From: Candidatus Bathyarchaeia archaeon
GTDB taxonomy: Archaea; Thermoproteota; Bathyarchaeia; 40CM-2-53-6
Assembly: GCA_049513715.1 (NCBI GenBank)
Contig: JBEKVV010000005.1
Coordinates: 64,001 to 128,000 of the forward strand
Direction: 5' to 3'
Length of the DNA stretch: 64,000 bases
Shown here: positions 20,355 to 37,664 of the stretch, one piece after another
Layout of the letters: each line of letters opens with the position of its first letter
How positions within the stretch are numbered: position 1 is the stretch's first letter
The notes under the pieces: generated by a model
Told to the model about the DNA's origin: nothing
The model's input: the letters and a program-made list of their open reading frames with translations, nothing else
Database searches by the model: none
Position numbers and translations under genes: made by a program

Positions 20355-21610
20355 GTTTCCTTCCTCCGGAGGGCGGATTTGATCGAGATCTCGGGTGAGA
20401 GCTCAATCACTTTTGCGTATCTTGCGATATCGAGCAGTCTCAACCTACGCTCGATGGAGAGAACTCTCCGTGCGATCATCTCGACTTCAGGCATACCCCC
20501 GTAATCCCCACCCAATGCCGGCGCAAGGCACAGCAGGCTGTAACCCCTGGCCGCAACGTTCGCGATGATGTCAATGACTTCCTCTCCTATGAGAGGCGAA
20601 ATGAAGACGATGATGGACCTCGAGGGGGCTACCGCAACGATGACCGACTGAACAGCGTACTCCATTGGAACAGTGGGACGCCCTGCTTTCGCGATCGCAA
20701 GGTTGTCGAGCAAACGGAGGAGCTGGCGTTTCCCAAACGCAGGGTCGACCCAAGTCCTTACGGCACCATAGACGGACAGCCCTACCCGGTTCCCTTGAAG
20801 AATCAGCTGCGAGCAAAGCGATGCCGCGAGGCTTACCTCAAATTCAACAGCATCATACTCGAAAAGCTTTGACAAAGCTCCCTCTGAACAGTCCAAGACA
20901 ACCAGGACATCAGTGACCTGCTCGCCTTCAAATTCGCTCGTCACAAGTCGCGCCAATTTCGCGGAAGCTTTCCAGTTGATCCGCCGGAGTTCATCTCCTG
21001 GTGAGTAGAGCCTCAGTCCGAAGAACTCACTCCCTAACCCTATGTTTCTTGATGGAACCATTCCTGGCCATGGGCCAACTCTCTTAGCTCTTAATTCAAT
21101 TGAACCTAGCTTCTCGAGGTTAGGGTAGATTCTCAGTTCACTTAATTCTGACAATTGGCCCCTGTACTCATGAAACCCCATAGCGTCGGACAATCGGAAT
21201 GATAGCGGACCTAGAACATAGCTTCCCCTCAATGGAGCGCATATCCGGTAGCAGTATTCTACCGTCTCTCCTGGTTTCAGAGATACTGCAATTTGCTTTG
21301 TTCCCGCTTCCAAAACGAGTGGCGGCGGGACCGAGTCTTCTAAGTAGACCGTATCGTATTTCTTGTTCGATTTGTTCTTCACCTGTACTGTGACGTCAAT
21401 GCTCTCCCCTCCAAAGGAGCGCGATGGATGCAGCTTTCTTGCAACACTCAATGGATCACGTTGGATTGTGCCTAAACCCGATGATACAAGAATGACGAAT
21501 GCTAACGGGATCACGAAGATCGTGATTATGGGTTCTCTAAGTACTAGGGCCAGGCCTATGAACCCGTATGCCAAAAGCAGGTGTGCTAAGCCCTTCCCAG
21601 TGAGTGGCAT
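20339..21610 (-). CDS. DUF58 / vWA-like MoxR partner
   Basis: EFFGLRLYSPGDELRRINWKASA, VLDCS; ATG lies within the island's left direct repeat. Confidence 0.88.
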   Translation of the reverse strand: MPLTGKGLAHLLLAYGFIGLALVLREPIITIFVIPLAFVILVSSGLGTIQRDPLSVARKLHPSRSFGGESIDVTVQVKNKSNKKYDTVYLEDSVPPPLVLEAGTKQIAVSLKPGETVEYCYRICAPLRGSYVLGPLSFRLSDAMGFHEYRGQLSELSELRIYPNLEKLGSIELRAKRVGPWPGMVPSRNIGLGSEFFGLRLYSPGDELRRINWKASAKLARLVTSEFEGEQVTDVLVVLDCSEGALSKLFEYDAVEFEVSLAASLCSQLILQGNRVGLSVYGAVRTWVDPAFGKRQLLRLLDNLAIAKAGRPTVPMEYAVQSVIVAVAPSRSIIVFISPLIGEEVIDIIANVAARGYSLLCLAPALGGDYGGMPEVEMIARRVLSIERRLRLLDIARYAKVIELSPEISIKSALRRKETWRTN

Positions 21611-21641
21611 TTTACCTTACCTTTATAGGTATTGTAGTTAT
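21603..21641. repeat. left attachment site (core AGTGGCAT + arm TTTACCTTACCTTTATAGGTATTGTAGTTAT)
   Basis: Arm matches the reverse complement of 37626-37656 at 25/31 positions. Confidence 0.8.
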
Positions 21642-21672
21642 ATCAGGTCTTAGGGCTTCCGGGGCTAATTGA

Positions 21673-22902
21673 ATGATCGATGAGATGTATGAGCTTTGGC
21701 TCAAGACTCTGAGACCGTCAACTAGAAAGTCGTATGGGGCTATACTTAGGCGATTATTCAAGCTAACCAACCTAACCCCACAGCAGGCTCTCAGTAGAGT
21801 GAAGGCTGAGGGCAGGAAGAACAGCGCTACTACGTATGTTCTGCTGCAAAACCAAGCCAGAGCCAACCTAACCGAACGAACCGCATACATCGGCATATTC
21901 GCCCTACGCCGATTCCTTTTCGACAACGGAGTAATGCTTCTACCGCCTACTAGATTGTCTACGCCTAGAAGAGTCAAGCCCAGTACGAATATGACCTGGG
22001 AGCAAGCCAACAGAATCTGTGACGCAGCCAGCAAACCCTACAACCTGATCCTAAAGCTAATGTTGCATTGCGGCTGGGGAATCGGAGAATTCCTCAAATT
22101 CAACTCGGAGGATACATGGAACACAATAAGGTCCTATGTTGCAAGGAATCCTCAAGCCGAATACTTCCGATTCAACTACTCAGGCCGCAAAACAAGCCAA
22201 CAAGAATTCTACGCACTCGTGCCAATGTTCATGATTCAGGAAATCATGAGCACCATACCAGTGCCTATCAGAGCCACGCATGGATTCTCAGGCAACAAGA
22301 AAGGAAAGCTGACTAAAGCTGAGGGCATAATCATCGACACCTCACACTACGCCTCATCAACCAAGTACATCGAGCAAGCCTTCAAAACAGCTCTAAAACG
22401 TGCACCCATAGTCGTTCAGGGTACACCGTCAGTACACGAACTTAGGGACACGTTCAGAACTAGAGCAACATTCGTAGAATGCGCTGCGGAAGCAGTGGAA
22501 TTCGCGATGGGTCACACAATAGACCCCCTTGGATACAACAAGGCATACTATGACGAAAAATGGGCATGGACAAACCTCAACAAAATCTACGGACCATCAT
22601 CAGTCAACGAACAACAACTCAAATCAGTACAATTAGAAGCCGAACGAGTCAAACAAGAAAATGAACTACTCAAAACCACAATAATCGAAGCTTTGAGCGC
22701 TCAAAGAGAACAAACAGAAAAACGATACAATGAACTACTCAAGGTCAAAGTAAAACAACTCGGCGTAAGCGTTGAGGGCGATTTGCCCAACCGTCTAATG
22801 ACCCCCGCCATGAAAGAACTACAAACCGAATACGACCGCCTAACCAAACAGCTCACTAACTTGGGTGCAATCAAGAAAGTTGACCGGGTTGCAACAACAT
22901 AA
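21673..22902 (+). CDS. tyrosine recombinase/integrase, atypical box I, coiled-coil C-terminal tail
   Basis: LMLHCGWGIGE (GxRxxE position), HELR, MGH, GYNK catalytic Tyr. Confidence 0.82.
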   Translation: MIDEMYELWLKTLRPSTRKSYGAILRRLFKLTNLTPQQALSRVKAEGRKNSATTYVLLQNQARANLTERTAYIGIFALRRFLFDNGVMLLPPTRLSTPRRVKPSTNMTWEQANRICDAASKPYNLILKLMLHCGWGIGEFLKFNSEDTWNTIRSYVARNPQAEYFRFNYSGRKTSQQEFYALVPMFMIQEIMSTIPVPIRATHGFSGNKKGKLTKAEGIIIDTSHYASSTKYIEQAFKTALKRAPIVVQGTPSVHELRDTFRTRATFVECAAEAVEFAMGHTIDPLGYNKAYYDEKWAWTNLNKIYGPSSVNEQQLKSVQLEAERVKQENELLKTTIIEALSAQREQTEKRYNELLKVKVKQLGVSVEGDLPNRLMTPAMKELQTEYDRLTKQLTNLGAIKKVDRVATT

Positions 22903-23251
22903 CCAATGGAGGATTAGTATTGACCGAGTTCACTTCGAGGGCTTTTGAGCTCCATAACTACCACCCCTCTCTGAGACAACCAGCAAAGCAGAAAACTGAT
23001 TATTCCCAATCAACCTTACCCATCTATCTGAGATGAAAGAAGATTTGTCAGCCATTCACCCAAATGAGCCGAGAGCATTCCTTGAACAAGAAATGGCCAA
23101 ATTACAGGCAGAACTACTCAATCAGAAAACCGAAAGACACACGACAGGTAACATAAGCAGTCGAACTGGCTTCGATCATGCAGACATTTTCTCTGGTAAC
23201 TTAACGTCTTCGACTGCTGTGGATTGTTGTAACAAATCCTCTTTTCCACAA

Positions 23252-23389
23252 CTACATACGCCCACACATGGCACTGAAAGGTAAAACACTTGCCGAAACT
23301 GGTCGAATGATTTTCAGATCGGCTCCACAAGTTGGGCAATACGAAAGGCCGGAGTCAACTTGAGCCCCACAGTTGTAGCAGAATCCCAA
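23252..23389 (-). CDS. small zinc-ribbon protein or fragment (45 aa)
   Basis: Manual translation MGFCYNCGAQVDSGLSYCPTCGADLK...; below the ORF-track cutoff. Confidence 0.5.
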   Translation of the reverse strand: MGFCYNCGAQVDSGLSYCPTCGADLKIIRPVSASVLPFSAMCGRM

Positions 23390-23451
23390 CTGGTTACCTT
23401 CTCTTGACCTCGTCCTTTCTTAGAACCTTGCAATAGAAATGCATAGTGAGC

Positions 23452-23919
23452 CTATGCAGAAGGTGCATACGTTTTGCAGTTCTCACAATACCATCTCTGA
23501 TACTGTGAGACCCATGACATCGGCCTGCCACAGTTTGTGCAATAGTAAGGGGATGCAGGTGTTGGAGGTGGAGGCAGCTTCTTCTCTTTTCTCACAAGAG
23601 CGATTATTCCGGCAACCAGAAGCAGTAGAGCCCCAACCCAAAGCCCCAATGCAACGAAGAGGCCCAGCAAACCACTGCCAACCATCATTATGCCTGCAGC
23701 CTTCGGGTGGCTTTTGACGAAAGCAACTCCCACTAGTCCGATAATCGACAGCACGGCTCCTGCGACTGCCCCTTCTGCCACAGCCATACCGGCTCGAAGA
23801 CCGAATGCTCCAATCAAACCTCCAAGGAAAAAGAGACCTGGAGCAACGACAATTCCTAGAATCCCACCGATGAGGCCTATGATAAATTCGGCAGTTCTTT
23901 CAGCCAATCCCAAGGTCAC
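23452..23919 (-). CDS. membrane protein (DUF4064-like) with C-terminal zinc ribbon
   Basis: Four Gly-rich TM segments, poly-Pro linker, CTNC...WYCENC. Confidence 0.7.
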   Translation of the reverse strand: MTLGLAERTAEFIIGLIGGILGIVVAPGLFFLGGLIGAFGLRAGMAVAEGAVAGAVLSIIGLVGVAFVKSHPKAAGIMMVGSGLLGLFVALGLWVGALLLLVAGIIALVRKEKKLPPPPTPASPYYCTNCGRPMSWVSQYQRWYCENCKTYAPSA

Positions 23920-23972
23920 CTGCTAGGGTCTTGCAATACGAACATGAATTCATCTCTGTCCTGCAATCTCGA

Positions 23973-24935
23973 TTAGGCGCAAGAGTAAGCTCTGGGAAGT
24001 ATGTCAAATGTGAAAGAATTACCAGCCACTGTCATAATTTCGACTCCATAACCAGTACCTTGCTTGAGGTTGACTGGAACCAAGACTTCTGTCCAGTGTC
24101 CTGCTACGAGAATCGTTTTCTCATTTGAGACAACTGTGCCGTTCAAGAGAATTTTATCGATAGTCACGTTATACGCTCCCTCATTCTTGATTTCCAAGCG
24201 TGCTTTCTCATCGACCATTTGACAGGACTCAAGGCTGAGTTTCTCGTACACCTGAACACTTTGGTCGATTCCTTTCACGTCGAGGAGAAAAGTTACGTCA
24301 CAGTTTGCTGTGGAGCCCATACAAGTCGAATAGTATCTCACTTCAGTTGGGCTGGTGGTGGTCAGAATCATGAAAGTCAGTTCGCTGTCTATTTCTTCCT
24401 CAGGTTTGATGGAGTTCACGAGCGAGAAGGGGGTGTCTTTCGCTTCGTAAACGTAGCCTTTGTCCACAGTGACTTCCCATTTCGAGAAGATAGAGAATAG
24501 ACTGGTCTCTCTATTTCCCATATTCCTGGCATGAATCGACAGCAAAAGGAATTTGTATCCCTGGTCTGCCCAAGTGTAATCGTATCCCAAAGTGAGTCTT
24601 GCTGAAGTGAAGGTAAACTGTACAGGCACTTCATCGCTCCCCATTTTCATATTGAATGGTTCACCTATTCGGATTAAACTGCCACTTTGAAGTTCTGTCG
24701 TTGTTTCAGCGGTCGTAGACGTACCAATATTCCGTGGCGTGCTAGATGCAGCCATTATGACCCCGATGAACAACACTACTATGACGATAACCAGAATGTT
24801 CCTCTTAGTATGGGAAGCCTTTCGAGCTGCACTCATGACAGGTGGTGGTACAGCTGCAGCGAGTGCTGTCCCACAGTACGTGCAGAACTTGGTTTCTGGG
24901 GGAAGTTCTTTCCCGCATTTCCAGCAGTGAGGCAA
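23973..24935 (-). CDS. zinc-ribbon/TM/DUF4352-like extracellular protein
   Basis: CWKC..CTYC, one TM, Thr-rich linker, Ig-like beta domains. Confidence 0.7.
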   Translation of the reverse strand: MPHCWKCGKELPPETKFCTYCGTALAAAVPPPVMSAARKASHTKRNILVIVIVVLFIGVIMAASSTPRNIGTSTTAETTTELQSGSLIRIGEPFNMKMGSDEVPVQFTFTSARLTLGYDYTWADQGYKFLLLSIHARNMGNRETSLFSIFSKWEVTVDKGYVYEAKDTPFSLVNSIKPEEEIDSELTFMILTTTSPTEVRYYSTCMGSTANCDVTFLLDVKGIDQSVQVYEKLSLESCQMVDEKARLEIKNEGAYNVTIDKILLNGTVVSNEKTILVAGHWTEVLVPVNLKQGTGYGVEIMTVAGNSFTFDILPRAYSCA

Positions 24936-25086
24936 GTCCCACTACACCATCTGAACCTACCTTGTCACGGTCTTAAGATTTTGCTTTTGCCTGATGGCAA
25001 AGAGATAAGTCTGCAGAAGCCTCAATGAACCTATGCCATATTGTCCAAACTGTGGCAAACTCTCGCCGAATTCAAAACGTATCCAC

Positions 25087-25617
25087 TCAAATGCTCTTGA
25101 GAAACGGGTTTTCAGGAAAGTACTCAGCAAAGGCATTGGTCTTCTCATCAAATTGTGCTAGGCTGAAGGTTCTGTATTCTCCTATATGGAGCAACGAGAA
25201 GATCACTTTTGACAGTCTCTTCAATTCCTCGGGAATCTCTTCCGTTGTAACAAGAAGAGCATACTTGGCATCGAAGAGCTCAGCGTACTTCTTGGTTTGA
25301 TAGATATCATCGAGTTTCAATTTCTCCGCCTTGACTTCAACAACGACGAATCCCACTTCATATTGTTCCTTAATGAAGCCAGTAATGTCAGGTGCCGCAT
25401 CTTTCAGAAAGAGGAAGATTATATCTCTATTAGAATTGACCTGAGACTTCAGTTTGTTGCTGAATGTTTTGTCAGCAGTAATTTCTAGATGTAACTCTTC
25501 AAACTTGGTCTTCAGTGTTTCAAAGAGCAAGGCCTTAACGGGCTCGTAGAGCCTGCGTTCTTTCTTGGTATCGTCTGTTCCCTTGGGCATACCACAACAG
25601 GTTACACGAGGGGCCAT
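25087..25617 (-). CDS. PD-(D/E)xK restriction-endonuclease-like protein
   Basis: E...PDITG...VEVK...Q..KY motif order; start may be 25590. Confidence 0.7.
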   Translation of the reverse strand: MAPRVTCCGMPKGTDDTKKERRLYEPVKALLFETLKTKFEELHLEITADKTFSNKLKSQVNSNRDIIFLFLKDAAPDITGFIKEQYEVGFVVVEVKAEKLKLDDIYQTKKYAELFDAKYALLVTTEEIPEELKRLSKVIFSLLHIGEYRTFSLAQFDEKTNAFAEYFPENPFLKSI

Positions 25618-25704
25618 CTAACTCTTATGAGTTGAGAGGACATAGTGTTCTGAGGAAACATCAACGCTACTGTTGCTAACGTAGCCTTCTTCCTCCGTGG
25701 TTAT

Positions 25705-25788
25705 CTTAAGATTCTCTTGGAATTTGTGCAACGGGACGAAGGGTTACAAGCGGGAAATTGCTTGTGTGAGGGAGATTGGAGCGAACAC
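25705..25788 (+). repeat. dispersed repeat family R1, copy 1 (CTTAAG-N31-GGTTAC-N31-GAGCGAACAC)
   Basis: 66/84 identical to 26733-26816 without gaps; last 22 nt identical. Confidence 0.85.
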
Positions 25789-25818
25789 CGATTCGGTCTC
25801 AGCACCTAATGTTCCTGT

Positions 25819-26673
25819 TCAGCTTAAGACAGCCGCAACATTCTTGAAATGTGTTTTTGCGACGTTAGCAAGTATTTCTTTGGAAACAGTTTCGGGCTTA
25901 GCTCCTCTCAATTGCACACCGTATTTTCGCTCTAGGTCAGCAACTCGATGTTCGAATTCTTCCTTAGCAAGTATGCTCGCTACTGAGACTGGAATTTCTG
26001 TATCACCAGACGGAGTTTGGAAAACCTCTAAGTTGGAACTCTTATCGGATACATGAGCCGTGGTAAGGAGTCTCAGTTCGGTCTTCTCAACATCAAACTT
26101 GTCTATGAGTATCTTTATTCGACGTTCACCCAACTCAGCAAGGACTCCACGAATCGCAGAAGCGTGGGCCCATGCCAAGAGGTCGTTAAGCGATTTTCCT
26201 TCCATTTTGAACTCTTTGCATAATTGATTATATTTCTCCGGCATGAGGGTTAGCACATTCTTCGTAAATGATTCACGGGCTATTTCCTGTGCTAGCTTCA
26301 TCAAGCGACTTCGTTCAATCTCCTTGCTGTCTCGAACTCCGAGTTCTCTCATGCGGGTGATTTGATTTGGCGTCATTGCGATGCAGGCAACAACTAAGGG
26401 TCCATACCATTCTCCCTTGCCAACCTCATCTGAACCAACCAGATAGTCGTAGGAAGCTTCCGCAGTCAGGATTTCTTTGAGAAGCTTGCGAGTATCACGA
26501 GCATTATTGTGAACAATTTTCCCGGATTTATACACAATAAGTTGGATGTCGCCATCAGAGACCCTCAGAGCTTCATGTTGACTCTTTGGCTCGACTTTCT
26601 TCAAATTGGAACGTAGGATTTGTTTCTTGAGTTTGTCGAGTTCTACATTTGAGAGCGCAATGGAAACCGGCAC
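25819..26673 (-). CDS. rnhC: ribonuclease HIII-like protein (N-terminal TBP-like domain + RNase H fold)
   Basis: LIVYKSGKIV N-domain, GSDEVGKG..YGPLVVA, GVRDSK, IDKF, VSVASILAK, AKTHFKN. Confidence 0.75.
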   Translation of the reverse strand: MPVSIALSNVELDKLKKQILRSNLKKVEPKSQHEALRVSDGDIQLIVYKSGKIVHNNARDTRKLLKEILTAEASYDYLVGSDEVGKGEWYGPLVVACIAMTPNQITRMRELGVRDSKEIERSRLMKLAQEIARESFTKNVLTLMPEKYNQLCKEFKMEGKSLNDLLAWAHASAIRGVLAELGERRIKILIDKFDVEKTELRLLTTAHVSDKSSNLEVFQTPSGDTEIPVSVASILAKEEFEHRVADLERKYGVQLRGAKPETVSKEILANVAKTHFKNVAAVLS

Positions 26674-26732
26674 ATCAAGTCCCTTGATATAGCATGTCCA
26701 TAGAACGAACTCATTATTTTTCCATTGGATAC

Positions 26733-26816
26733 CTTAAGAATCTCCTGAAAATTGCGTAGCTGAGTGAAGGGTTACACTCGGATAATCGCTTGGTTGAGGG
26801 AGATTGGAGCGAACAC
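26733..26816 (+). repeat. repeat family R1, copy 2
   Basis: Direct copy 1028 bp from copy 1, bracketing the RNase HIII gene. Confidence 0.85.
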
Positions 26817-26836
26817 TCTAGTGCATTTGCTCAAGG

Positions 26837-27181
26837 CTAGCGTGTTAGGAGGCTTCTGAAGTAGGGGTGCATGTGTTTGTTCTTGTGTGTGCTGAAGTTA
26901 GCGAGGTTGAGGTGGGCTTGGGGGAATTGTTCGGTTAGGTCGGAGTAGGTCCACCCTGAAATTAGCATGGTATCGATTTTCTCGCATGTTTCCGGTTCGA
27001 GTTTGCCTATCTTGCATTTTCGTGGGCATCGACTGTAGGCTCTTCCTGATTTTATGTTTTCATTTTCGGGCTTGGTCCACGTGTACTTTCCACACTCAAG
27101 ACAGATAAGAAGCCGGTTGTGTTGAAACGAAGAAAGATAGTTCTCTATGTGATTGCAGTGTGCGCATGCAATAGTTACCAT
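26837..27181 (-). CDS. Cys/His-rich putative Zn-binding DNA-binding protein
   Basis: CAHC, CLEC, CPRKC, helical segment, HKNKH. Confidence 0.55.
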   Translation of the reverse strand: MVTIACAHCNHIENYLSSFQHNRLLICLECGKYTWTKPENENIKSGRAYSRCPRKCKIGKLEPETCEKIDTMLISGWTYSDLTEQFPQAHLNLANFSTHKNKHMHPYFRSLLTR

Positions 27182-27235
27182 TGTGGATTCGCCCTTCGAC
27201 GGTGATTTCGGGAATTGTTGTTGAATCTTGATTTC

Positions 27236-27336
27236 GTTCAGTTTTCTCTCTCCTGCATTAGTATATCACATCCACAATAGAATATGATGAAAAGTACGCT
27301 CTTATCGATTTCAGAGGGTTTGTGAGAACTGGAAAA
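27236..27336. repeat. duplicated promoter/5' region (family R3); other copies 30734-30790 and ~31026-31125
   Basis: GTTCAGTTTTCTCTCTCCT..GCATT.GTATATCACATCC.CAATAG shared with 30734; CTTATCGATTTCAGA.GGTTTG.GAGAACTG 29/31 identical to 31091-31121. Confidence 0.8.
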
Positions 27337-27473
27337 CCATCAGCGGATTCGAGGTTACTTCCGGAAAAGAAGATAGTGCGGTTGAACCCTTCCTTCGTAC
27401 TGGAAACGGGTTTTCAGAAAGTAAGATAAGTGAATCTTGGTGACAATGTTATGGAGTTAGGCGGTACAGAATA

Positions 27474-27716
27474 ATGCCGAAAATAACGCCGGAAAAGGAT
27501 AACGAAGCTCTGTACAAAAGGCTTGTAATCATCTCCAAACTTCTGGCTATGAGTTTGGTAAAAGATATCAAATCTCAACAAGAAAGAGTGAAGCTTCTCG
27601 ATGAGGCAGGACTGAGCCCGTATGAGATAGGAGATCTGCTCGAGATTAAACCCGTGACGGTTAGTGTGACTCTGTTCAACATTAGAAAGAAAGCGAAGAT
27701 GAAAAAAGGTAAATAA
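27474..27716 (+). CDS. small HTH protein (paralog 1)
   Basis: KRLVIISKLL...GLSPYEIGDLLEIKPVTVSVTL. Confidence 0.7.
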   Translation: MPKITPEKDNEALYKRLVIISKLLAMSLVKDIKSQQERVKLLDEAGLSPYEIGDLLEIKPVTVSVTLFNIRKKAKMKKGK

Positions 27717-27740
27717 GCTGCCCTTTGAGGCTTTTCTTGA

Positions 27741-28259
27741 TTGCCTCGGCCACAACCGACTCCTGTTGACAATCCGATAGTTGTTTTTGTAAGTTCGAGT
27801 CAAAGAGAATTCCAGCAACTTCGAGATTATCTTAAGCTAATTCTTGAAGAAGACGACTTTCTGCGTAGGGGAATGGTCAAGGTCGAACTTGCTGAAAGGC
27901 GGAGTGGTGAGCGCATCCGAGGAGATATTTCTCAGGCCCTAAGCAACTCATCTATTTACGTTGGGATTTTTGGAAACAGATACTCTCCAATTACGATTGC
28001 GGAATATTTCGAAGCACGGCGCTGCGGATTGCCTCTAGTAATTTTCGATATGGTCAAGACAGGAAGTCGAGACAGGCGTGTTAGGGTATTTCTCTCCGAT
28101 CAAGTTAAGGAGAAGGATGATTGCCGCTTGACTGAAATACGTTTCAGACCATCTAAGAGCGAGTCGGTAGCGTGGTTGATTTGTCAGAGAGTGGCTAATA
28201 CGATTGCTAATCTTGTCCGGGAGGATGTTGAGGTGAGGAAGAAAGTCCACCCACAGTAG
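27741..28259 (+). CDS. DUF4062 (TIR-like) domain protein
   Basis: VFVSS....LR, SSIYVGIFGNRY, TIAEYFEA...LP. Confidence 0.75.
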   Translation: MPRPQPTPVDNPIVVFVSSSQREFQQLRDYLKLILEEDDFLRRGMVKVELAERRSGERIRGDISQALSNSSIYVGIFGNRYSPITIAEYFEARRCGLPLVIFDMVKTGSRDRRVRVFLSDQVKEKDDCRLTEIRFRPSKSESVAWLICQRVANTIANLVREDVEVRKKVHPQ

Positions 28260-28349
28260 AATAAGGGATTTCGGGGATGTGATGAGAAATATGTCGGGAC
28301 TTAGAAAGTGAGATAAGAGACGACCTAGGTTCGGTACTCTGAGTGTGTC

Positions 28350-28574
28350 TTGCCAAAGACTGCTGAAAAGGAACGAGATGCGATAACAAAACGACTTGAT
28401 GCAATCATAAGGCTTCTGATGGAAGACCAGATTAGCCTTGGCAAAGCGACAAAAGGAAAGTTGTTGTTGCTATTGAAGTCCAGTGGGCTCTCCACGGGAG
28501 ATATCGCATTGATTGAAGGAAGAGCTTCTAAGGACGTAGCTAGTACGATGCGCAAGGCCAGGAGTGGAAGATAG
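28350..28574 (+). CDS. small HTH protein (paralog 2)
   Basis: KRLDAIIRLL...GLSTGDIALIEGRASKDVASTM. Confidence 0.7.
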   Translation: MPKTAEKERDAITKRLDAIIRLLMEDQISLGKATKGKLLLLLKSSGLSTGDIALIEGRASKDVASTMRKARSGR

Positions 28575-28578
28575 ACCG

Positions 28579-28746: not shown

Positions 28747-28760
28747 GCTTTCGACTGTAA

Positions 28761-29021: not shown

Positions 29022-29143
29022 GCCTCTAGGTGTTACTCAGGTAACTAGGTATTATCTGAAGAGGGTGGATTCTGATTATTTTGCTGAAGTATGAATAGCC
29101 GAGTCGATATCGCTATCGTCGATTTTGCAACTAACACGATGTT

Positions 29144-29554: not shown

Positions 29555-29729
29555 GAGAGAACGCCTTTAGGAATCCGATGATGTCAGTCGTATTTATGGT
29601 GTACCCTTAATGGAACAATACTGTTCAGGATATCTTTTAGTTGTAAGGTGTCAGGATTTCGAGTGTTCTGGAATGGCACTCAGGAGTCTTGTTTTGGGAT
29701 TCGTCCGGAGCCTATGTTCGTCATCTGAG

Positions 29730-29814
29730 CTTAAGGAATGTTGAAATTCCTGCCAATGTCCGAAGCGGGTTACTTGACTCTAGCCCTCTCTGTGCAGGAG
29801 ATTCGAGCGAACAC
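29730..29814 (+). repeat. repeat family R1, copy 3
   Basis: CTTAAG-N32-GGTTAC-N31-GAGCGAACAC with GGAGATT. Confidence 0.75.
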
Positions 29815-29904
29815 GTAAGTATTGAAACTTGGGGAGATGACTCTCTTAAGATCAATAGACCGATATTCCTCATCGCATACTGGAATACCTACACATTTAG
29901 AACC

Positions 29905-30537
29905 ATGCACATAGAGACCGTGAAGACCTTGATGACAAAGCTTCAAGGGAGGAAGCATAATCGGCAGAAGCAATTAGCCCTTGAGATCCCAACATGGTAC
30001 GCATTGCTATGGCTTATCGCCCCTTATTTTGTGGAGAAGGATGGTCTAATTCGATTCGATACTTCCCGCCAGAGAACTATTGCGTGCTGGCAATGGGGAG
30101 TAACGTTAACATGGTTTAGAAAAAATAATGAAAAGGTAAACTACGGAACTCATACTCCGGATTTCGTCATCAAACAGGTTGACAAGCCTCTATTGGCTAT
30201 TGAATGTAAGAATGTCAACCATAGATTCAAAATTTACCCTGACTGGCTCACGAACGAAGTAGTATCCAGGTTCGAAAACTATCACCAGTGTAGGAAATTG
30301 GCAATCTTCAGCTTCTTTGTTCCAGCTTACAATTATGAAACCACAATTCACAGAGCATTGATGCAAAAACGGATTCAGATAATCGAACTTGATGAACAGC
30401 CATTAAGTCACAAGATAGCTGATATCGGCTTTGCAACGATCCCTCTTAGAACCTATCTCTCTCCACACGTGACGAAAGTAATGGAGAAGCTCAAGCCTAC
30501 TCCCATGGCGCCACTGGAATCGTTTTCCCTCAAGTAG
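29905..30537 (+). CDS. PD-(D/E)xK nuclease-like protein
   Basis: TPDFVI...IECKN; start moved to ATG 29905 because the longer frame runs through repeat R1. Confidence 0.6.
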   Translation: MHIETVKTLMTKLQGRKHNRQKQLALEIPTWYALLWLIAPYFVEKDGLIRFDTSRQRTIACWQWGVTLTWFRKNNEKVNYGTHTPDFVIKQVDKPLLAIECKNVNHRFKIYPDWLTNEVVSRFENYHQCRKLAIFSFFVPAYNYETTIHRALMQKRIQIIELDEQPLSHKIADIGFATIPLRTYLSPHVTKVMEKLKPTPMAPLESFSLK

Positions 30538-30671
30538 GCCCCCTCAGCCTTGAATGTTGGTTGGGCACTCTCTAATTATTACTCTGGCTGGGTTTAGTGT
30601 TCGCTTCCCTATCTATTTTTTCCGATTCGCGTGATTAAAATGAGATCAATCAGAGGTGTCCGTAATTGTCA

Positions 30672-30721
30672 GCTATTTTAATAGTACTTTAGCGAGCTTT
30701 AGGCTATTTTAATAGTACTTG
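30672..30721. repeat. 19-bp direct repeat x2 (GCTATTTTAATAGTACTTT)
   Basis: Exact copies at 30672-30690 and 30703-30721, period 31 bp. Confidence 0.85.
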
Positions 30722-30814
30722 GGAATCGATTTAGTTCAGTTTTCTCTCTCCTCTGCATTGGTATATCACATCCTCAATAGTATATGGAAAAACAGGTTTA
30801 GAGAATTAGCCGTT

Positions 30815-31048
30815 CTAGGGGGTTCTGGCTTGAATGTTAGGAACATTGGAAATGGCCTTCTGCGTATGCTGTTCTACCATGGTAATCGCTAGCCAGTAGA
30901 GCTTGCCGTCTATTGAAAGGTTACGTCGCTTTGTATAGAAGCCAGTGCTACCCGTCTTAAATTGGGTTGGTCGTAGTGGTATTGGAATTCCTTCTATGGC
31001 GATTTCGGGGACTTTGATTATTTTCATTTTTCTTATCCCTCCTCTCAT
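30815..31048 (-). CDS. small beta-rich basic protein
   Basis: 77-aa ORF with FKTGSTGFY...IDGKLY; GAGGAGG before the second ATG. Confidence 0.55.
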   Translation of the reverse strand: MRGGIRKMKIIKVPEIAIEGIPIPLRPTQFKTGSTGFYTKRRNLSIDGKLYWLAITMVEQHTQKAISNVPNIQARTP

Positions 31049-31252
31049 TTGTGTATCGTGTCCTCAATAACATATATTGAAAAGTGGTGTCTTATCGATT
31101 TCAGAAGGTTTGCGAGAACTGAAAATTTCGCAGTGGAACGCCACATAATGAAGCGGTGTACCTTGTTGCTACGTTCTTAGCCCGAACATCCACTTTTTGC
31201 TTTACTCTTTCGAATCTATAGAACAATGGGAATTCACTGCACTGTCGGTAGA

Positions 31253-31298
31253 GGCTTACACGGTGTTCAACTCGTGTCGGAGTAGTTTGGAGCGAACA
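31253..31298 (+). repeat. repeat family R1, degenerate copy 4
   Basis: GCTTAC-N30-GAGCGAACA. Confidence 0.5.
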
Positions 31299-31409
31299 GT
31301 GCAGTAGTTAGCGTTGAGGAAGTCTTTCCCCATAACCTTTAGACAATCTTAAGAAAAGCAGGGAAGACGTGAAAGCGTCGGTATGGTATCGTTTTTCCCG
31401 AGTAACCAA

Positions 31410-31600
31410 CCCATAGCTATAACAGCTATACTTGGCTAATTCACGCTTGCAACCAAGCTTTATCCTTTAGCATCTTTGACTTCTAAAGGATGAGTTAAAG
31501 AATGATTTTACCCGTGCAAGCGTGACTTAGGTTGAAAATTACCCGTGACGCCATCCTATAGCTATAATTGAGTTATAGGATGCAGCTATAGGTCAAGCTA
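31410..31600. other. structured non-coding segment (candidate ncRNA or origin)
   Basis: Nested stems 31441-31451/31515-31525 and 31462-31470/31483-31491, hairpin 31552-31582, four AGCTATA motifs. Confidence 0.5.
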
Positions 31601-31724
31601 CACGAAACGAATCCTCAGAGTCGGGTTCGACAGATACATGCTTGCGTAAGTTTTCCTCACCTCTCAGAGTCGAATGTGTTCTTCTGTCATAGCTTATTGT
31701 CGAACAGTAGTCTTGCAGAAGACT

Positions 31725-31916
31725 ATGCGATGTTTGAAGTGTGGTCGTGAAGCATTCCTGCTGAGTACCGCTCAGCAATGGCGAAGAGAGAATTGGATCG
31801 TCACAGAGAAGTACTATTGTTCGTCATGTGGAACAACGTACATCTCAGAGAACGATAAGATCTGGCAGATTGCCTTGCCAAGTTATTCGGTATTGGATAA
31901 GGAAACAGACTCGTAA
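31725..31916 (+). CDS. small zinc-ribbon protein
   Basis: MRCLKCG...YYCSSCG. Confidence 0.5.
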   Translation: MRCLKCGREAFLLSTAQQWRRENWIVTEKYYCSSCGTTYISENDKIWQIALPSYSVLDKETDS

Positions 31917-31985
31917 CAATACCATCTCTTCTCATTTTTGCGGAAACACCCAGGAATTGCATTGGCTTACCGCAAACTCTACACA

Positions 31986-32023
31986 TGTGTGGGTAGGCTG
32001 GTGCGCACACACACACGAAAAAC
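31986..32023 (+). repeat. repeat family R2, copy A (TGTGTGG-N6-TGGTGCGCACACACACACGAAAA)
   Basis: 23 nt identical to 33483-33505. Confidence 0.8.
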
Positions 32024-32173
32024 GACGCCGGTTGGAAGGGAAAGTTGACTGTTAGATATTTTTCGGATTCCTGGTTCTCCTTTTGATTAGCCCGTAAGCG
32101 AATATCATGAAAATGGCGAGTAGCAGCAGGCCTAATGGATATTCAGGAAGGAAAATTGGTTGGGTTTATGTGT

Positions 32174-33316
32174 TTAGTTCTTTGAGTCCCAAAGCGTTGC
32201 TCTTGGGCAGTCGCGGTAGCCGCCTGGAACTCGGACCGAATGAACGATCACTGTCGTGAGGGCTGGCCCACCGGGGTCAGTAACCGTGCCGCTGGCTGAT
32301 GCGGTGAAGGTTAACGTGATAATGGTTCGAGTGGAATCAAGCGATGCTGATGGATACTGAGTCCACACACCAGACTGAAACTTCCAATACGAGAAAGACC
32401 CCGCGGGAAGCGCGCTGGGCAACGTTATCGTTACCGTAACAGTTCCCCCAGCTCGGAGGCCTGAGATTGTGAAGGAGAATAAACCATCAGGAAACGTTAA
32501 CCCCGCAGGAGGAGCAGGCGAAACACTCGACACAGCTGTTGACGTCAAGCTTGTGAACGCACCAAGATCGCTGCTGAATGAGGCGGTACCTGAGACGCTG
32601 CTACCAGAAGCAGTCGGCACCTGAGTCGGACACGGAGACTCAGTCACAACCGTCCCAGGAACCAAAGCGATACCCCCAACAACCACCGCCCCACACTTCT
32701 CAACGAAGACGCCACTATTTGTAAGTTCGACCCCTGTGAAGTCGAGGGAGTTGACGTTCACGAAAGTCCCCCCAGCATCAATGTGAATTGAAGTGGGGCT
32801 TGCGTCTACGAGAGATGCGTTGTTTACGACGTTGCCCGCGATGTTGAGCACACCATAAATGTCAGCTCTCGGAAGAACAGCTGCTGGTGTGAAGCCTGCC
32901 ACCCCTATTAGCCCACCTCCAATGATACCGGGTAAGGTCGGTGCTGGCGTGTGAGATTTGATTGTCAAGGTACATGTTGAGCTGCATGTAAGAGCCGTGC
33001 TAGGGCCGACGAGAATGCTGTGTACTGTCTGAACGCTGCTTATCGTAACTGTGTAACCGGCTAAATTAGGATAAATTAGGTACACATCGTCCGAAGCGGT
33101 AGGTAGCCGTCCTGCTGGAGGGAATCCAATTTCGGGGAGAATCCAATTCGCGACTGTTTCCCAACTGCCGCCTGAAGGATTGCCCCAGCAAATCGTTGCA
33201 GGTGCCTGACAGGGATTGGGTGGCACTGCCTGCACCTTGGGTGCTATGGCTAGAGGAACTAGTAACATGCTGAGAACCATCAGAGCCGCCAGGAAATATT
33301 GACGGCTCATAGCCAT
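32174..33316 (-). CDS. secreted surface protein with C-terminal choice-of-anchor U-like domain
   Basis: Signal peptide; PDGLFSFTISGL..G.TVTVTITLP...YWK...DPGGPA. Confidence 0.65.
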   Translation of the reverse strand: MAMSRQYFLAALMVLSMLLVPLAIAPKVQAVPPNPCQAPATICWGNPSGGSWETVANWILPEIGFPPAGRLPTASDDVYLIYPNLAGYTVTISSVQTVHSILVGPSTALTCSSTCTLTIKSHTPAPTLPGIIGGGLIGVAGFTPAAVLPRADIYGVLNIAGNVVNNASLVDASPTSIHIDAGGTFVNVNSLDFTGVELTNSGVFVEKCGAVVVGGIALVPGTVVTESPCPTQVPTASGSSVSGTASFSSDLGAFTSLTSTAVSSVSPAPPAGLTFPDGLFSFTISGLRAGGTVTVTITLPSALPAGSFSYWKFQSGVWTQYPSASLDSTRTIITLTFTASASGTVTDPGGPALTTVIVHSVRVPGGYRDCPRATLWDSKN

Positions 33317-33463
33317 GAACTCAATCAGCCAATCGGCTTCAGCAATTAATAACACTACCTCGCCCAGCTAATCCAGTTAGGACTAGGCTGGATCAGGTGC
33401 ATTTGCAGTCTGTGCGGAGCCTGATACTGCGCCTCCTGCTCTCATTGTTTCGTTATCTTTCGC

Positions 33464-33506
33464 TTCGTCTGTGTGGTACATATGGTGCGCACACACACAC
33501 GAAAAC
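33464..33506 (+). repeat. repeat family R2, copy B (imperfect palindrome)
   Basis: TTCGTCTGTGTG...CACACACACGAA arms, 11/12 complementary. Confidence 0.8.
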
Positions 33507-33602
33507 GGAACCGTTGTTCACGAAAGTAGCACGATGCATGGTGATGGCAAGATATCGATTATAAGGGCAGTCAGCACAGTGGACATTCAATAGCTGATTA
33601 CT

Positions 33603-33839
33603 GTGACTGAAGGGTTGTCTTTGAGTAGAATGCCCAAGTATGCTTTTCTTGATTTTGTGAGAGGAATTCAACCAGTCAGGGAACACAAGGGGTGGGGCAT
33701 CTTTCGATTCAAGCGGGCCTATCATGCAGCTGAAGGATGGATCGACTTGTATGTTGGTTACAAACCCGAACGCGTGTTGATTGAGGGACTCGGTCTTCAG
33801 TCCGTGCTTTCAGATATTGACGAAGCTGAACAAGCATAG
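33603..33839 (+). CDS. small hypothetical protein
   Basis: 78-aa ORF lying between R2 copies B and C. Confidence 0.4.
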   Translation: MTEGLSLSRMPKYAFLDFVRGIQPVREHKGWGIFRFKRAYHAAEGWIDLYVGYKPERVLIEGLGLQSVLSDIDEAEQA

Positions 33840-34040: not shown

Positions 34041-34097
34041 AAAAATAACTCAGATAGCTATAAAGGTAAAGTAAAATTGTCATTTTACCTTACCTTT
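34041..34097. repeat. internal right-end/core/left-end junction (lox-like 14-8-14 site)
   Basis: 34041-34075 is 31/35 identical to 37622-37656; core ATTGTCAT; 34084-34097 identical to 21611-21624. Confidence 0.85.
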
Positions 34098-34149
34098 CTG
34101 CATGGCCTCGCAAGTAGTAGCAACTCGTCTCGGAACATTGTCGTTGGAG

Positions 34150-34635
34150 TCATTCTTTCTTTCTCGTCTGTGGGGTGTCGAGTTCCTCTGCCTGCAATTC
34201 TTTGAAGCGTGTTTCCACGAATTGACCTACCTTTTGCTGGCCATATTCCTTCATTTCGCTTTGTTTTTTCAGGTGCTGTTCGACTGTTCGAAGCAGTTCG
34301 TCCATGTTGATTGGTTTGACCAGATAGCCGTGGGCGCCCTTGTTTACTGCGTCTATGGCATTCTGTAATGCGGGGTATCCTGTGAGGATTATCTTGATCA
34401 TCTCTGGGGTTGTTTCCTTCATGGCGGTGAGAAGTTTTGTGCCTTCCATGTCTGGTAGGCGAATGTCTACGAGCGCGAGGTTGTAGAAGTTGTTTTGGGA
34501 TTTCTCAATGGCTTCCTTGCCATTGCTCGCCGTGTCCACTAAGTAGTCTTCACTCTTTAACGCTTCAGCGATGACTTTGCGTGTTCCTTCATCGTCGTCT
34601 ATGACGAGTATTCTGCCTTTTTCGGCTTCACTCAT
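34150..34635 (-). CDS. response regulator (receiver domain)
   Basis: ILVIDDD, LVDIRLPDMEG, ILTG, KP. Confidence 0.92.
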   Translation of the reverse strand: MSEAEKGRILVIDDDEGTRKVIAEALKSEDYLVDTASNGKEAIEKSQNNFYNLALVDIRLPDMEGTKLLTAMKETTPEMIKIILTGYPALQNAIDAVNKGAHGYLVKPINMDELLRTVEQHLKKQSEMKEYGQQKVGQFVETRFKELQAEELDTPQTRKKE

Positions 34636-36587
34636 AATGGTTCACCTCCCGTCTGGACGTGTTGGATTGGGAGTTTCAGTGTGAAGGTTGTTCCCTTTCC
34701 AACGGTGCTCTCAACGGATATAGTGCCACCATGGGCTTCTATAATGCGTCTGCAGATTGGCAGTCCCAGCCCTATTCCCTTTGCCTTGGTCGTGTGTAGT
34801 GGTGTCCAAATTTTCTCCAGCATGTCTTGGGGAATTCCAAAGCCTGTGTCGCGGACGGATATCGACGCCTCTTGTTGTGTATTCATGCTGGAGATCGACA
34901 ATTTTCCGCCTTCCGGCATTGCGTCGATAGCGTTCTGAATAAGGTTTGTAAGTACACGTTTGATCTTGGGTTCATCTGCGAGAATCTCTGGTGCATCAGC
35001 TGTCGTGTCCTCTATTGTGATGTTGTTTGGAATCTTAATATCGGTAAGCGTCTGTCTTACGAGCGATTTTGGTGTGGTTGGCAGTGGTTGGAGTTGCATT
35101 TCTCTTGAGAACTCCAACAGGTCGTTGATGATTCCATTTGCGTATTGAACTCCGTTGTCTATGACTGCCAGCATCTCTTTCGTGGAGGGGTCGGGTGCGT
35201 TTCGGAGATGTCTTCTTATGTTGTAGGCGGCTCCGGCTATTCCTTGCAGCGGGTTGCGAAGGTCGTGTCCAACCATCGCAGCAGTCTCACCGATACTTGC
35301 CAGTCGTTGAGATTCAGCGAGCTGCGCCTCCAGTTTCTTACGTTCGGTGATGTCAATGAAGCTTTCAAGTAGATGCTCCTGCCCACCCAGAACGATGCGA
35401 CGAACGCTTTTCATAACGGGGGTCGTCTTCCCGTTAACCCGGAGGAACACTCTTTCCGCATGGTCGATAGTTTGTCCGAGGTCTGTAATCGGGCAGCGTC
35501 CTTCCTCAGCCGGACACACGTACTTATAACATCTTGAGCCGACAATTTGCTCTATCGGAGCGCCAGCCATCTCAATGGCGGTAGTATTGGCGTCAACGAT
35601 CACATGTGTTTTCGGATCTATTATCATGATGCCGGTCCTCACTGAATCGAACATGGTCCTTAGCCTCTTTTCGCTCTCCCCCAACTTCTCCTCGCTTTCC
35701 CGCAGTTTCTTGGTTCTCTCATCCACCAACTCCTCCAAGTGCAGCGAGTACTGCTTCAGTTCCTCTTCCAACCGTTTACGTTCAGTGACGTCGCGGAGTA
35801 TTCCTTCATGGTAAATGACGTTTCCCTGTTCGTCGTGAACGTAACGACCATGGTCTTCGACCCAGACCTCGGATCCATCCTTTCGACGCATCCGGTATAC
35901 TTCCACTTCTTCCTGACCTGTATCCAGAACATGGCTTCCACGTTCTTCGAGTGAGAAATACAGTTCCTTCTTGATGTCCGTAATGTCCAACATTTCCTGC
36001 TTGCTCGAATACCCGAACATCTTCACAAAAGCAGGACTAACGTCGACAAATCGACCCTCGTGCGTGCTACGGTACATTCCATCCAGCATCCGATCGAAGA
36101 GAGACTGGTAGCGTTCTACCGATCGACGAAGTTTCTCTTCCGCCCTCTTGCGTTCGGTGATGTCGACTCCCATGACAAGAAAACTCCGTTGCCCTTCTTC
36201 TTCGAGTACAAGTTGTTTTGGTGGAAACAATAGGGTGCGGGTCGAGCCGTCCTTGCTTCGGAACACCACCTCAAACTCTGAGGCTGCTCCGTCAATCAAT
36301 GCGGCCCGTATTTGTGCAGCTGCTTTTTTCCTCTGGTCTGGGACAACGAAGTCCAACACATTCTTGCCGACGATCTCATCCCTTAAGGCGCCCGACATTT
36401 CGAGAAGCGCGTTGTTGGCATCTATTACTTTTCCGTCTGCGCCGAGCATCAACATGGCCGCTGAGCCGTCTTCACAAAGATACTTGTATTTCCGCTCAGG
36501 ATTCAACAGCAGCGGTCGCGACTTAATCGACCTGCCCTTGGTTAGATTTCTTTTCGTCATTTTTCTCGTCTTTTTCGCAATCAACAC
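34632..36587 (-). CDS. cytoplasmic multi-PAS sensor histidine kinase
   Basis: Three PAS domains ending DITERK; GHDLRNPL H-box; NLIQNAIDA, DTG, GIGLGL. Confidence 0.93.
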   Translation of the reverse strand: MLIAKKTRKMTKRNLTKGRSIKSRPLLLNPERKYKYLCEDGSAAMLMLGADGKVIDANNALLEMSGALRDEIVGKNVLDFVVPDQRKKAAAQIRAALIDGAASEFEVVFRSKDGSTRTLLFPPKQLVLEEEGQRSFLVMGVDITERKRAEEKLRRSVERYQSLFDRMLDGMYRSTHEGRFVDVSPAFVKMFGYSSKQEMLDITDIKKELYFSLEERGSHVLDTGQEEVEVYRMRRKDGSEVWVEDHGRYVHDEQGNVIYHEGILRDVTERKRLEEELKQYSLHLEELVDERTKKLRESEEKLGESEKRLRTMFDSVRTGIMIIDPKTHVIVDANTTAIEMAGAPIEQIVGSRCYKYVCPAEEGRCPITDLGQTIDHAERVFLRVNGKTTPVMKSVRRIVLGGQEHLLESFIDITERKKLEAQLAESQRLASIGETAAMVGHDLRNPLQGIAGAAYNIRRHLRNAPDPSTKEMLAVIDNGVQYANGIINDLLEFSREMQLQPLPTTPKSLVRQTLTDIKIPNNITIEDTTADAPEILADEPKIKRVLTNLIQNAIDAMPEGGKLSISSMNTQQEASISVRDTGFGIPQDMLEKIWTPLHTTKAKGIGLGLPICRRIIEAHGGTISVESTVGKGTTFTLKLPIQHVQTGGEPL

Positions 36588-36597
36588 ATGTACCCGG

Positions 36598-36969
36598 CTA
36601 CTTGGATGATGAGTTCTGCAGCTTCATCTTCGCCTCGTCAACATATTCGAGCAAAGTGCGACTCGGATTGCCTGTGAACTCGAGCCCCAATTTGAGGTAA
36701 AATTCTCTGGCGACAGCCTTGGTTATGGTCTGAGCACTGGTGCCAAAAATCTTCTCTAGAGCAGTGAATAGGGTGTCAAGTCTGTAAGGGACCTCATCCC
36801 TCGAAATGGAGTAAATTGTTTGTAGATGGGCATATAGCGCATCAACCACCGCTCGACTAAGTAGATCAGTCATGGTCTCGTCTATGGATTCGACCAAGAC
36901 ATCGTTGAACTCTCTGCCGAGTTGTGATTGTCGCAATTCAATCAGCGGATCTTGAAGGCCTCTATGCAT
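36598..36969 (-). CDS. small archaeal signalling-associated helical protein (DUF3227-like)
   Basis: ESIDE...LL...ALY.HL...F..ALEKIFG; upstream of the kinase. Confidence 0.55.
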   Translation of the reverse strand: MHRGLQDPLIELRQSQLGREFNDVLVESIDETMTDLLSRAVVDALYAHLQTIYSISRDEVPYRLDTLFTALEKIFGTSAQTITKAVAREFYLKLGLEFTGNPSRTLLEYVDEAKMKLQNSSSK

Positions 36970-36984
36970 CAGCGCCTGAGAGGT

Positions 36985-37146
36985 TTATTCCTCGATCTTC
37001 ACCGTGCCTCGCTTTACCAGAATCCTATCGTGGTCTTTGATGAACACTATTAGGTCGCCGTTGTTGGCCCTGAGGAATTCTCTTACAAATTTCGGCAGCG
37101 TCAATTGATATTTTCCTGTAATAGTAGACTTGCCCACAACTTCCAT
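36985..37146 (-). CDS. AbrB/MazE/SpoVT-family DNA-binding protein
   Basis: STITGKYQLTLPKFVREFL...GD.IVF. Confidence 0.8.
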   Translation of the reverse strand: MEVVGKSTITGKYQLTLPKFVREFLRANNGDLIVFIKDHDRILVKRGTVKIEE

Positions 37147-37258
37147 GGAATCACGCCTACATGGAAACATGGAATACGTGGTCTTAGGCAGTCTGTTACT
37201 GGCAACAGGGCCGTTTGGTAACAACCCAAGCAAACGTGGAAAAGCCTTCGAAAACGGC

Positions 37259-37450
37259 TCAAAATGAGCTTAGTAACCCTTGCTTCATGACTTCGTAGAG
37301 TGCTTCATCAATCAATTTCGACAGGTCGAACTTCCAGAGTTCTTTCTCAGTGAAGCCTGTTACGGCCATGAGCTCTCTCTTGAAGGCCTCATGCATCTTC
37401 TCTTCCCTTACCTCTGACTTGATGGTTAGCAGGCAATCTTGAGAAACTGT
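37259..37450 (-). pseudogene. gene fragment resembling the C-terminal tail of archaeal integrases
   Basis: SQDCLLTIKSEVREEKMHEAFKRELMAVTGFTEKELWKFDLSKLIDEALYEVMKQGLL*; abuts R1 copy 5; family assignment from recall only. Confidence 0.35.
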
Positions 37451-37520
37451 CTAGAAATCAGCAGTTTTCCGAAGCAGGTTACAGTGTCGTTGTGGTAGTG
37501 TGCTGGAGATTCGAGCGAAC
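37438..37520 (+). repeat. repeat family R1, copy 5
   Basis: CTTGAG-N33-GGTTAC-N30-GAGCGAAC; GGAGATTCGAGCGAAC identical to copy 3. Confidence 0.7.
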
Positions 37521-37621
37521 TTATTCAAAAAAAGTTAGGGAGAAGTAGCGTTCACTTCTCTTTCCGGGAACCGAGACCCGTTTAATCTTCAAACCTTGGT
37601 CCAAGTTGCTCAGAAATGCTC

Positions 37622-37664
37622 AAAAATAACTTAGATACCTATAAAGTTATAGTAAAAGTGGCAT
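37622..37664. repeat. right attachment site (arm + core AGTGGCAT)
   Basis: Inverted match to the left arm, direct match to 34041-34075; core overlaps the moxR stop codon. Confidence 0.82.

Follow-up and report, generated by a model that had tools for sequence, protein, structure and literature searches.

The DNA considered here is a window of 64,000 nucleotides from a Candidatus Bathyarchaeia archaeon (contig JBEKVV010000005.1; G000:C5:64001-128000, where G000 is the 2.79-Mb genome that carries the insert), and the sequence run sets listed for this DNA are peat and wetland metagenomes. The window contains an insert of ~16 kb, made of two stacked units, that lies within the stop-start overlap of a moxR gene and a DUF58 gene and leaves both reading frames intact. 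This insert is a real tandem element with precise boundaries, and the archaeal family of its integrase is apparently undescribed. The family likely inserts by site-specific recombination at sites of 6-8 bases, which are often gene starts and not tRNA genes. The element itself is probably a cryptic, site-selective integrative element that inserts by conservative site-specific recombination through its own tyrosine integrase.

Boundaries and tandem structure of the insert

The insert is bounded by two copies of an 8-bp core, AGTGGCAT, whose identity stops at 8 bp on either side. The element-side arms next to these cores (21611-21641 and 37626-37656) are complementary at 25 of 31 positions, and between host flanks and arms 5-7 of 31 positions agree. 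Repeat, arms and dissimilar chromosomal flanks had all been described in an earlier note on this DNA, and all are confirmed. Such a configuration is rare. In the window, 38,340 pairs of identical 8-mers are separated by more than 100 bp; of these, the core pair scores 25/31 and the runner-up 19/31, and a scan of the 2.79-Mb genome returns three sites with more than 22/31 matches to any arm, all in this insert. The earlier proposal that an 8-bp match alone suffices for targeting does not account for the site: G000 contains 83 copies of the 8-mer, and 4 of GT(A/G) plus the core.

When the flanks are joined in silico, the minus strand reads ...GTG GAC TGA TG CCA CTC..., and the end of moxR (...PRVD*) overlaps the DUF58 ATG. 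Deletion of the interior and one repeat thus restores the moxR stop and DUF58 start, as had been claimed, with both genes whole. This pre-insertion junction is a reconstruction, and the empty loci compared with it come from other species of the genus, with no same-species strain among them. The search for an empty junction in relatives, which the earlier note had asked for, found moxR and DUF58 less than 100 bp apart in 28 of 29 loci (30 of the 39 matches, the window's own excluded), and none of these 29 loci holds an integrase. The one-base stop/start overlap itself is present in 10 of 13 same-genus loci. The exception among the relatives, L023:2390-2633 (G005:C77), has a 241-bp spacer at the junction, with no arm visible by eye.

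A tRNA gene search across the window found none. The view of a tyrosine-recombinase element at a non-tRNA site with short identity only is supported. In the whole of G000, ARAGORN without its intron option reports just 9 tRNA-like genes; most tRNA genes of this genome therefore probably bear introns. The G+C content is 46.0% in unit A, 48.5% in unit B and 50.7-50.9% in the flanks.

The insert had been taken for a single island, an account that overlooked a third arm at 34045-34075. From left to right, the layout is host, core, unit A (left arm, integrase, right arm), variant core, unit B (14-bp left end, right arm), core and host, with the internal junction at 34045-34097 (Table 1). Unit A measures 12,465 bp and carries the integrase, and unit B measures 3,573 bp and carries two-component cargo without an integrase. 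Because their right ends have 46 bp in common at just 85% identity, unit B comes from a related element and not from a fresh dimer. The order in which the units inserted is not readable from the structure. The variant core, ATTGTCAT, is the sole sign of heterology, and its divergence (2/8) may be due to drift, the arms being ~13% diverged. A pattern search for further circle-type junctions gave two unconvincing matches only, with a pattern that misses the truncated junction of the window itself.

Read on the minus strand, the left arm places AAGGTAAGGT, an AAGGT run, 3-12 nt before the DUF58 ATG, where it is a putative ribosome-binding site. In the other direction, the TATA-like hexamer of this arm lies 46 bp before the integrase ATG. 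The arm as a general host promoter is ruled out, the tight arm motif having 11 hits in G000 (3 of them the arms) and control patterns 6-21; a sigma-70 promoter scan is ill-suited to archaea.

Contigs of four of four runs span all three junctions at flat depth, and the element appears fixed in the sampled populations. Read depth is doubled at the two-component module of unit B because of 89-93% identical paralogues elsewhere in the genome (C5:206620 and C1:892213). Many metagenome contigs start 120-310 bp ahead of a homologous integrase, a pattern that a mixture of occupied and empty sites would be expected to give.

Table 1. Features of the insert and of the adjoining host genes (window coordinates)
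Feature	Position	Strand	Remarks
Host DUF58 gene	20339..21610	-	PF01882, E 1.5e-15; start codon and first codons within left core
Left core AGTGGCAT (attL)	21603..21610	+	8-bp direct repeat
Left arm, unit A	21611..21641	+	11-bp inner part, then family motif TTTATA-N9-GTTAT
Tyrosine integrase, 409 aa	21673..22902	+	Unit A; core-binding and catalytic domains, long C-terminal helices
Unit A cargo	23452..33839		DUF4064 and zinc-ribbon/DUF4352 membrane proteins, small helix-turn-helix proteins, DUF4062 protein; 176-aa nuclease-like open reading frame (weak HSDR_N_2), 282-aa orphan, choice-of-anchor U protein
Internal repeat (~90-115 bp), copy 1	25682..25796		Unit A
RNase HIII-like gene	25819-26673		Unit A; TIGR00716, E 5e-41, under cut-off
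Internal repeat, copy 2	26710..26825		Unit A
Internal repeat, copy 3	29707..29824		Unit A
Internal repeat, copy 4	31192..31310		Unit A
Right arm, unit A	34045..34075	-	26/31 to left arm, 27/31 to outer right arm
Internal core ATTGTCAT	34076..34083	+	6/8 identical to outer cores
Left end, unit B	34084..34097	+	14-bp exact copy of left-arm start
Unit B cargo	34150..37233	-	Response regulator, PAS histidine kinase, 123-aa open reading frame, AbrB/MazE-like open reading frame
Internal repeat, copy 5	37416..37530		Unit B
Outer right arm (unit B)	37626..37656	-	Inverted relative to left arm
Right core AGTGGCAT (attR)	37657..37664	+	8-bp direct repeat
Host moxR AAA+ ATPase gene	37664..38614	-	AAA_3 and AAA_lid_2; stop codon completed by last base of attR

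The integrase and its homologues

The open reading frame (ORF) of the integrase is intact and lies 62 bp inside attL. The protein scores under the Pfam cut-off, and its AlphaFold model (predicted local distance difference test score of 92) has XerA, SSV1 Int and lambda Int as its best structural matches. Residues 1-3 of the model pair with residues 75-77 of lambda Int and with residue 85 of Tn1549 Int. Because the protein aligns onto the core-binding domain from residue 1-3, it has no N-terminal arm-binding domain. The core-binding (CB) and catalytic (CAT) fold of the tyrosine recombinases and their Lys, His-x-x-Arg, His/Trp and Tyr residues are present; the box-I Arg is absent. In a profile alignment that includes 13 canonical sequences of the genus (XerA-like and integrase proteins), G136 aligns to that Arg, and in a family alignment of 236 rows from 221 proteins the same column (214 rows) holds G in 184, D in 28, N and S in one each, and R in none. 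R172, in turn, is found in 212/212 rows, K173 in 209/212, H255 in 212/212, R258 in 210/211, H281 in 208/210 and Y288 in 210/210; K173, H255, R258, H281 and Y288 are also conserved in 45/45 of a smaller alignment. By analogy with IntDOT (PMC8138268), R172 probably stands in for the missing box-I Arg.

A profile of the integrase recovers 168 clusters (50% identity, E <1e-30), with members in 34 of 401 genomes of the class. Homologues from 14 genome regions and from metagenome loci L065-L114 are compared here, with L058-L064 set aside as duplicates and L115-L141 as distant or partial; where their sources name them, they are Candidatus Bathyarchaeia. A single-protein scan of genome contigs and an alignment scan of viral contigs gave no match. 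Across the family, the arm motif lies 30-100 bp upstream of the integrase, and a loose pattern finds a T-rich hexamer, followed after 5-11 nt by GTTA(C/T), immediately before the integrase in 22 of the 24 left ends queried. Several of the homologous integrases are frameshifted. Four more Arg-less integrases are encoded in G000 itself (C2:26936-27775, C1:383708-384625, C1:409663-410544 and C1:95242-95922), two of which directly adjoin the 5′ ends of a methyltransferase gene and of metK. At L082 / G005:C58, four tandem copies of a 17-bp unit lie ~70-140 bp before the integrase.

Both ends could be resolved in six homologous elements. These are G017:C5 (13.2 kb, in the first codons of a GNAT gene; core 8/8, identity block 13 bp), G003:C17 (8.5 kb, at codon 4-5 of proS; 8/8, 11 bp), G003:C2 (7.7 kb, upstream of a malic enzyme gene; 8/8, 11 bp), L106 (8.1 kb, at the 5′ end of a JAB gene; 8/8, 11 bp), and G026:C17 and L099 (8.8-9.0 kb; cores 7/8 and blocks 6 bp each). 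The malic enzyme and JAB sites are empty in G000. The last two elements lie inside a gene that we take to be glyoxalase-like, present as a fragment without a Pfam hit. Every core begins with A and all but one finish in T, which suggests that the exchange region would be the central 6 bp, as in Xer sites. When arm symmetry was compared with 2000 shuffles, it was significant in G017 (reached by 0 shuffles), G026:C17 (19) and L099 (31). The comparison of ends that the earlier note proposed thus had a divided outcome: the homologues share the core-plus-arm register of this element, but only 3 of the 6 have long inverted arms that are significant. Long arms are strongest in the present element and are not a family constant. 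An ungapped inverted-repeat search at the homologues found only this element, and register-based and direct-repeat searches did better; a 9-bp repeat at L090 was rejected as an element end, as it falls inside an ORF.

The targets of the family are both varied and, in places, stable. At least 13 different neighbouring genes are seen across the family. In a quick tree of 39 integrases (with support from the Shimodaira-Hasegawa-like approximate likelihood-ratio test only, and target labels taken mostly from the left neighbour alone), cmk (6/6), TFX (4/4), glyoxalase-like (2/2) and JAB (2/2) targets each fall in a single group. The left arms at proS and JAB encode synonymous copies of the host N-terminus, the left arm at the GNAT gene gives an in-frame GTG, and GT(A/G)A...T is shared around the cores in several lineages. 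Conservative site-specific recombination fits these elements, because the cores match at both ends (8/8 here and 7-8/8 in the six homologues) and several clades keep one target; on the same grounds, the transposon-like nature once ascribed to the insert is not shown. We read the family as one of site-selective recombination with frequent retargeting.

Proposed mechanism and competing explanations

In the mechanism proposed here, a circular form would recombine with the moxR/DUF58 stop-start overlap, catalysed by the element's own integrase. This enzyme would bind the inner arms and exchange strands across the central 6 bp (A-N6-T; 8 bp are identical here), probably using Arg172 instead of the missing box-I Arg. 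Core homology and a few flanking bases would select the site, which would be near-unique in the 2.8-Mb genome and readily switched. Insertions at gene starts would persist because the left arm can replace the N-terminus or offer a ribosome-binding site. A further, related unit may then have targeted the junction formed by the first; the integrase of unit B would since have been lost or never have been present, and the differing internal core would be either the core of an earlier target or a product of drift.

Several observations weigh against this proposal. The host flanks hardly resemble the arms, which leaves binding at attB unaccounted for, and the role of R172 is suggested by conservation only. 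The internal core differs at 2/8, as strict homology predicts only given drift. The circle junction and the empty site were sought in Logan contigs from 4 of the 24 runs listed and neither was found, although such contigs drop rare forms and these runs may be the source of this DNA; for the circular junction to be looked for according to the earlier note, this absence thus applies to contigs and does not extend to reads. Among the 30 non-redundant homologue loci that have 2.5 kb or more downstream, just 6 have both ends resolved. No second end was found in the other 24, which include G000's own paralogues on C1 and C2 with 27-44 kb downstream, and no two-ended structure was found at G013, G004 or G026:C7. 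Arm symmetry is not significant in G003:C17 (908 shuffles), G003:C2 (1413) or L106 (195). As for target choice, the tree requires at least three origins for the proS target and two for alaS, and the proS cores differ with the host codons. The integrases of G017 (GNAT) and L067 (proS) are 82% identical and sit at different genes, and that of L079, 72-77% identical to proS-element integrases, has another target.

Target switching between integrases that are 76-82% identical, together with the range of at least 13 neighbour genes, would also be produced by heterology-tolerant, low-specificity transposition as in Tn916/CTnDOT. In that case, insertion would follow a loose flank motif, only gene-sparing insertions would survive, and matching cores would stem from later excision and re-insertion. 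The mismatched internal core (6/8), the 7/8 cores of the two glyoxalase-target elements and the GT(A/G)A...T common to several lineages agree with it, and the box-I Arg is missing as in IntDOT, which is tolerant of mismatched overlaps according to the available portions of PMC8138268 and PMC2817482. Nevertheless, the 7/8 cases are compatible with a 6-bp overlap shifted by one base, cores are 8/8 here and in four homologues, and entire clades stay at one site. Moreover, arms with synonymous copies of the target N-terminus imply long use of one site, and neither an arm-binding domain nor excisionase or conjugation genes were found in the element. On balance, such transposition is an unlikely explanation, though CTnDOT-like tolerance is the main rival. 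A more far-reaching form of the retargeting idea is possible but doubtful: the element would be the first archaeal, independently evolved counterpart of the CTnDOT type, in which an Arg moved to the Arg-Lys (RK) loop permits mismatched-core recombination without an arm-binding domain or helpers. These elements would hop between gene starts, carry off target cores and evolve, in the left arm, a substitute for the target's N-terminus or ribosome-binding site, and the internal core would be the fossil core of a former target.

Two further explanations are less probable still. A DDE or casposon-type transposon usually shows a short direct repeat together with inverted termini. On this view, the 8-bp repeat would be a target-site duplication and the arms the terminal inverted repeats of such a transposon acting in trans, with the tyrosine recombinase as cargo. 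However, no transposase or Cas1 gene was found among the scanned element ORFs, the arm motif accompanies the integrase at 30-100 bp family-wide, the three full arms of the genome are all here, and identity blocks range from 6 to 13 bp among homologues, unlike a fixed duplication; this explanation is hardly tenable. It is also very unlikely, if slightly less so, that the insert is a dead accretion region that has lost recombination at its ends, its arms being mainly promoters or replication-type sites. The TATA-like hexamer before the integrase, the fixation in 4/4 runs and the frameshifts in homologous integrases would suit such a region, but the integrase here is intact, the motif-to-core distance is fixed at both ends, and the hits of the tight arm motif show no excess over controls and thus no general host promoter.

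Cargo, known systems and significance

Among the 17-21 ORFs of the element, no replication, conjugation or virion genes were found with Pfam, NCBIfam and PHROGs, although orphans remain, and a PADLOC defence scan of the element proteins gave 0/17. An integrase-like match at 30815-31087 was not accepted as a gene (E 0.02, two stops). In unit A, an RNase HIII-like gene rides as cargo in an archaeal element, and a 78-aa ORF (33570-33839) has an 84% identical copy at G000:C3:525922-526190. The paralogues of the unit B module (G000:C5:206520-210728 and C1:888639-892313) each have the same tRNA-tail-like sequence before them, which ARAGORN reports as tRNA-Phe on C5.

The five degenerate copies of the internal repeat are co-oriented, all lie within the element, each upstream of a minus-strand gene block, and follow the pattern CTTAAG ... 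GTTAC-N22-23-GGAGATT(G/C)GAGCGAAC. Copies 1 and 2, with a period of 1028 bp, exactly enclose the RNase HIII-like gene. No consensus fold, no Rfam match above the gathering score and no occurrence in family genomes (0/58) were found, and one viral match was judged to be chance. The repeats are possibly cassette joints with a promoter. Two more small repeat families are present in unit A, one at 27213-27335 and 30711-31125 and the other at 31986-32023, 33470-33507 and 33894-33919; the latter has copies elsewhere in the genome (C7, C10).

The comparisons that follow draw on the available portions of the cited papers. Cryptic integrated elements (CIE) of Thaumarchaeota have an integrase as their sole hallmark, a median size of 17 kb and attachment (att) sites down to 8 bp; 14 of 68 lie in protein-coding genes, whose frame is rebuilt by element sequence, and one site is re-used in tandem (Krupovic et al. 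2019, PMC6563490). The present element resembles them in its only hallmark, its 8-bp att, its protein-gene target and its tandem re-use. Like a CIE, it combines an integrase with att direct repeats (the empty site being in other species) and has no virion, conjugation or casposon hallmark. An 8-bp att and protein-gene targets have already been reported for Thaumarchaeota. By contrast, CIE target gene 3′ ends, whereas the sites here are mostly gene starts and the integrase is oriented divergently to the gene that is cut. The host here is bathyarchaeial, and the available portion of that paper mentions neither inverted arms nor the absence of the box-I Arg for CIE.

The IntCTnDOT subgroup likewise lacks the box-I Arg, has a downstream Arg instead and uses several related targets (Smyshlyaev et al. 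2021, PMC8138268; Laprise et al., PMC2817482), but it has an arm-binding domain and a Bacteroidetes host, neither of which applies here. The Arg relocation would be convergent, as sequence kinship is not demonstrated. Tn916/Tn1549 integrases insert in AT-rich DNA without strict specificity (PMC8138268) and possess an arm-binding domain; here there is none and no conjugation module is present, and in structural comparison XerA, SSV1 and lambda Int outscore them. The outer cores match at both ends here (8/8) and those of the homologues at 7-8/8, with 6/8 at the internal core, and both target-faithful clades and target switches are seen. The dusA-associated integrases also target the 5′ end of a protein gene, to which the island gives a new 5′ end, but they are bacterial, with 19-28-bp att and nearly one target, compared with 6-13-bp identity and many targets here (Farrugia et al. 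2015, PMC4482086). Atabeyarchaeia elements such as Yucahu-i share the wetland archaeal host, a tyrosine integrase as first gene and an 11-bp non-tRNA att, and their integrases are said to be closest to bathyarchaeial ones; Yucahu-i has replication genes and coexisting circles, neither found here (PMC11529989). Finally, archaeal XerA and SSV-type integrases have the same two-domain CB and CAT fold and are the best structural matches, but they keep the box-I Arg, and the SSV type is split by tRNA-gene integration, while the present integrase is uninterrupted and the site falls outside it (Badel et al. 2021, PMC8371274).

Separate precedents thus exist for 8-bp att, protein-gene targets, tandem arrays, 5′-end replacement and Arg relocation (PMC6563490, PMC8138268, PMC2817482, PMC4482086, PMC11529989, PMC10541130, PMC8371274). 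No published description of this integrase family or of such ends in Bathyarchaeia was found, in keeping with the suggestion of a possibly undescribed archaeal family, although some members may figure in the integrase tables of PMC8371274, PMC6563490 and PMC11529989.

With an integrase below the Pfam cut-off and scars of just 6-13 bp in protein genes, this family would escape standard island finders. Bathyarchaeia are abundant, yet to our knowledge hardly any of their mobilome has been described beyond a few viruses. The element offers a defined set of substrates, namely attL, attR, a natural mismatched junction and six homologous site pairs, that bear on open questions such as target switching and the recognition of non-tRNA sites without dyad symmetry, the latter raised in the available portion of PMC8371274. 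An integrase that is compact and needs no helpers, and whose core is short and changeable, could also serve as a genetic tool.

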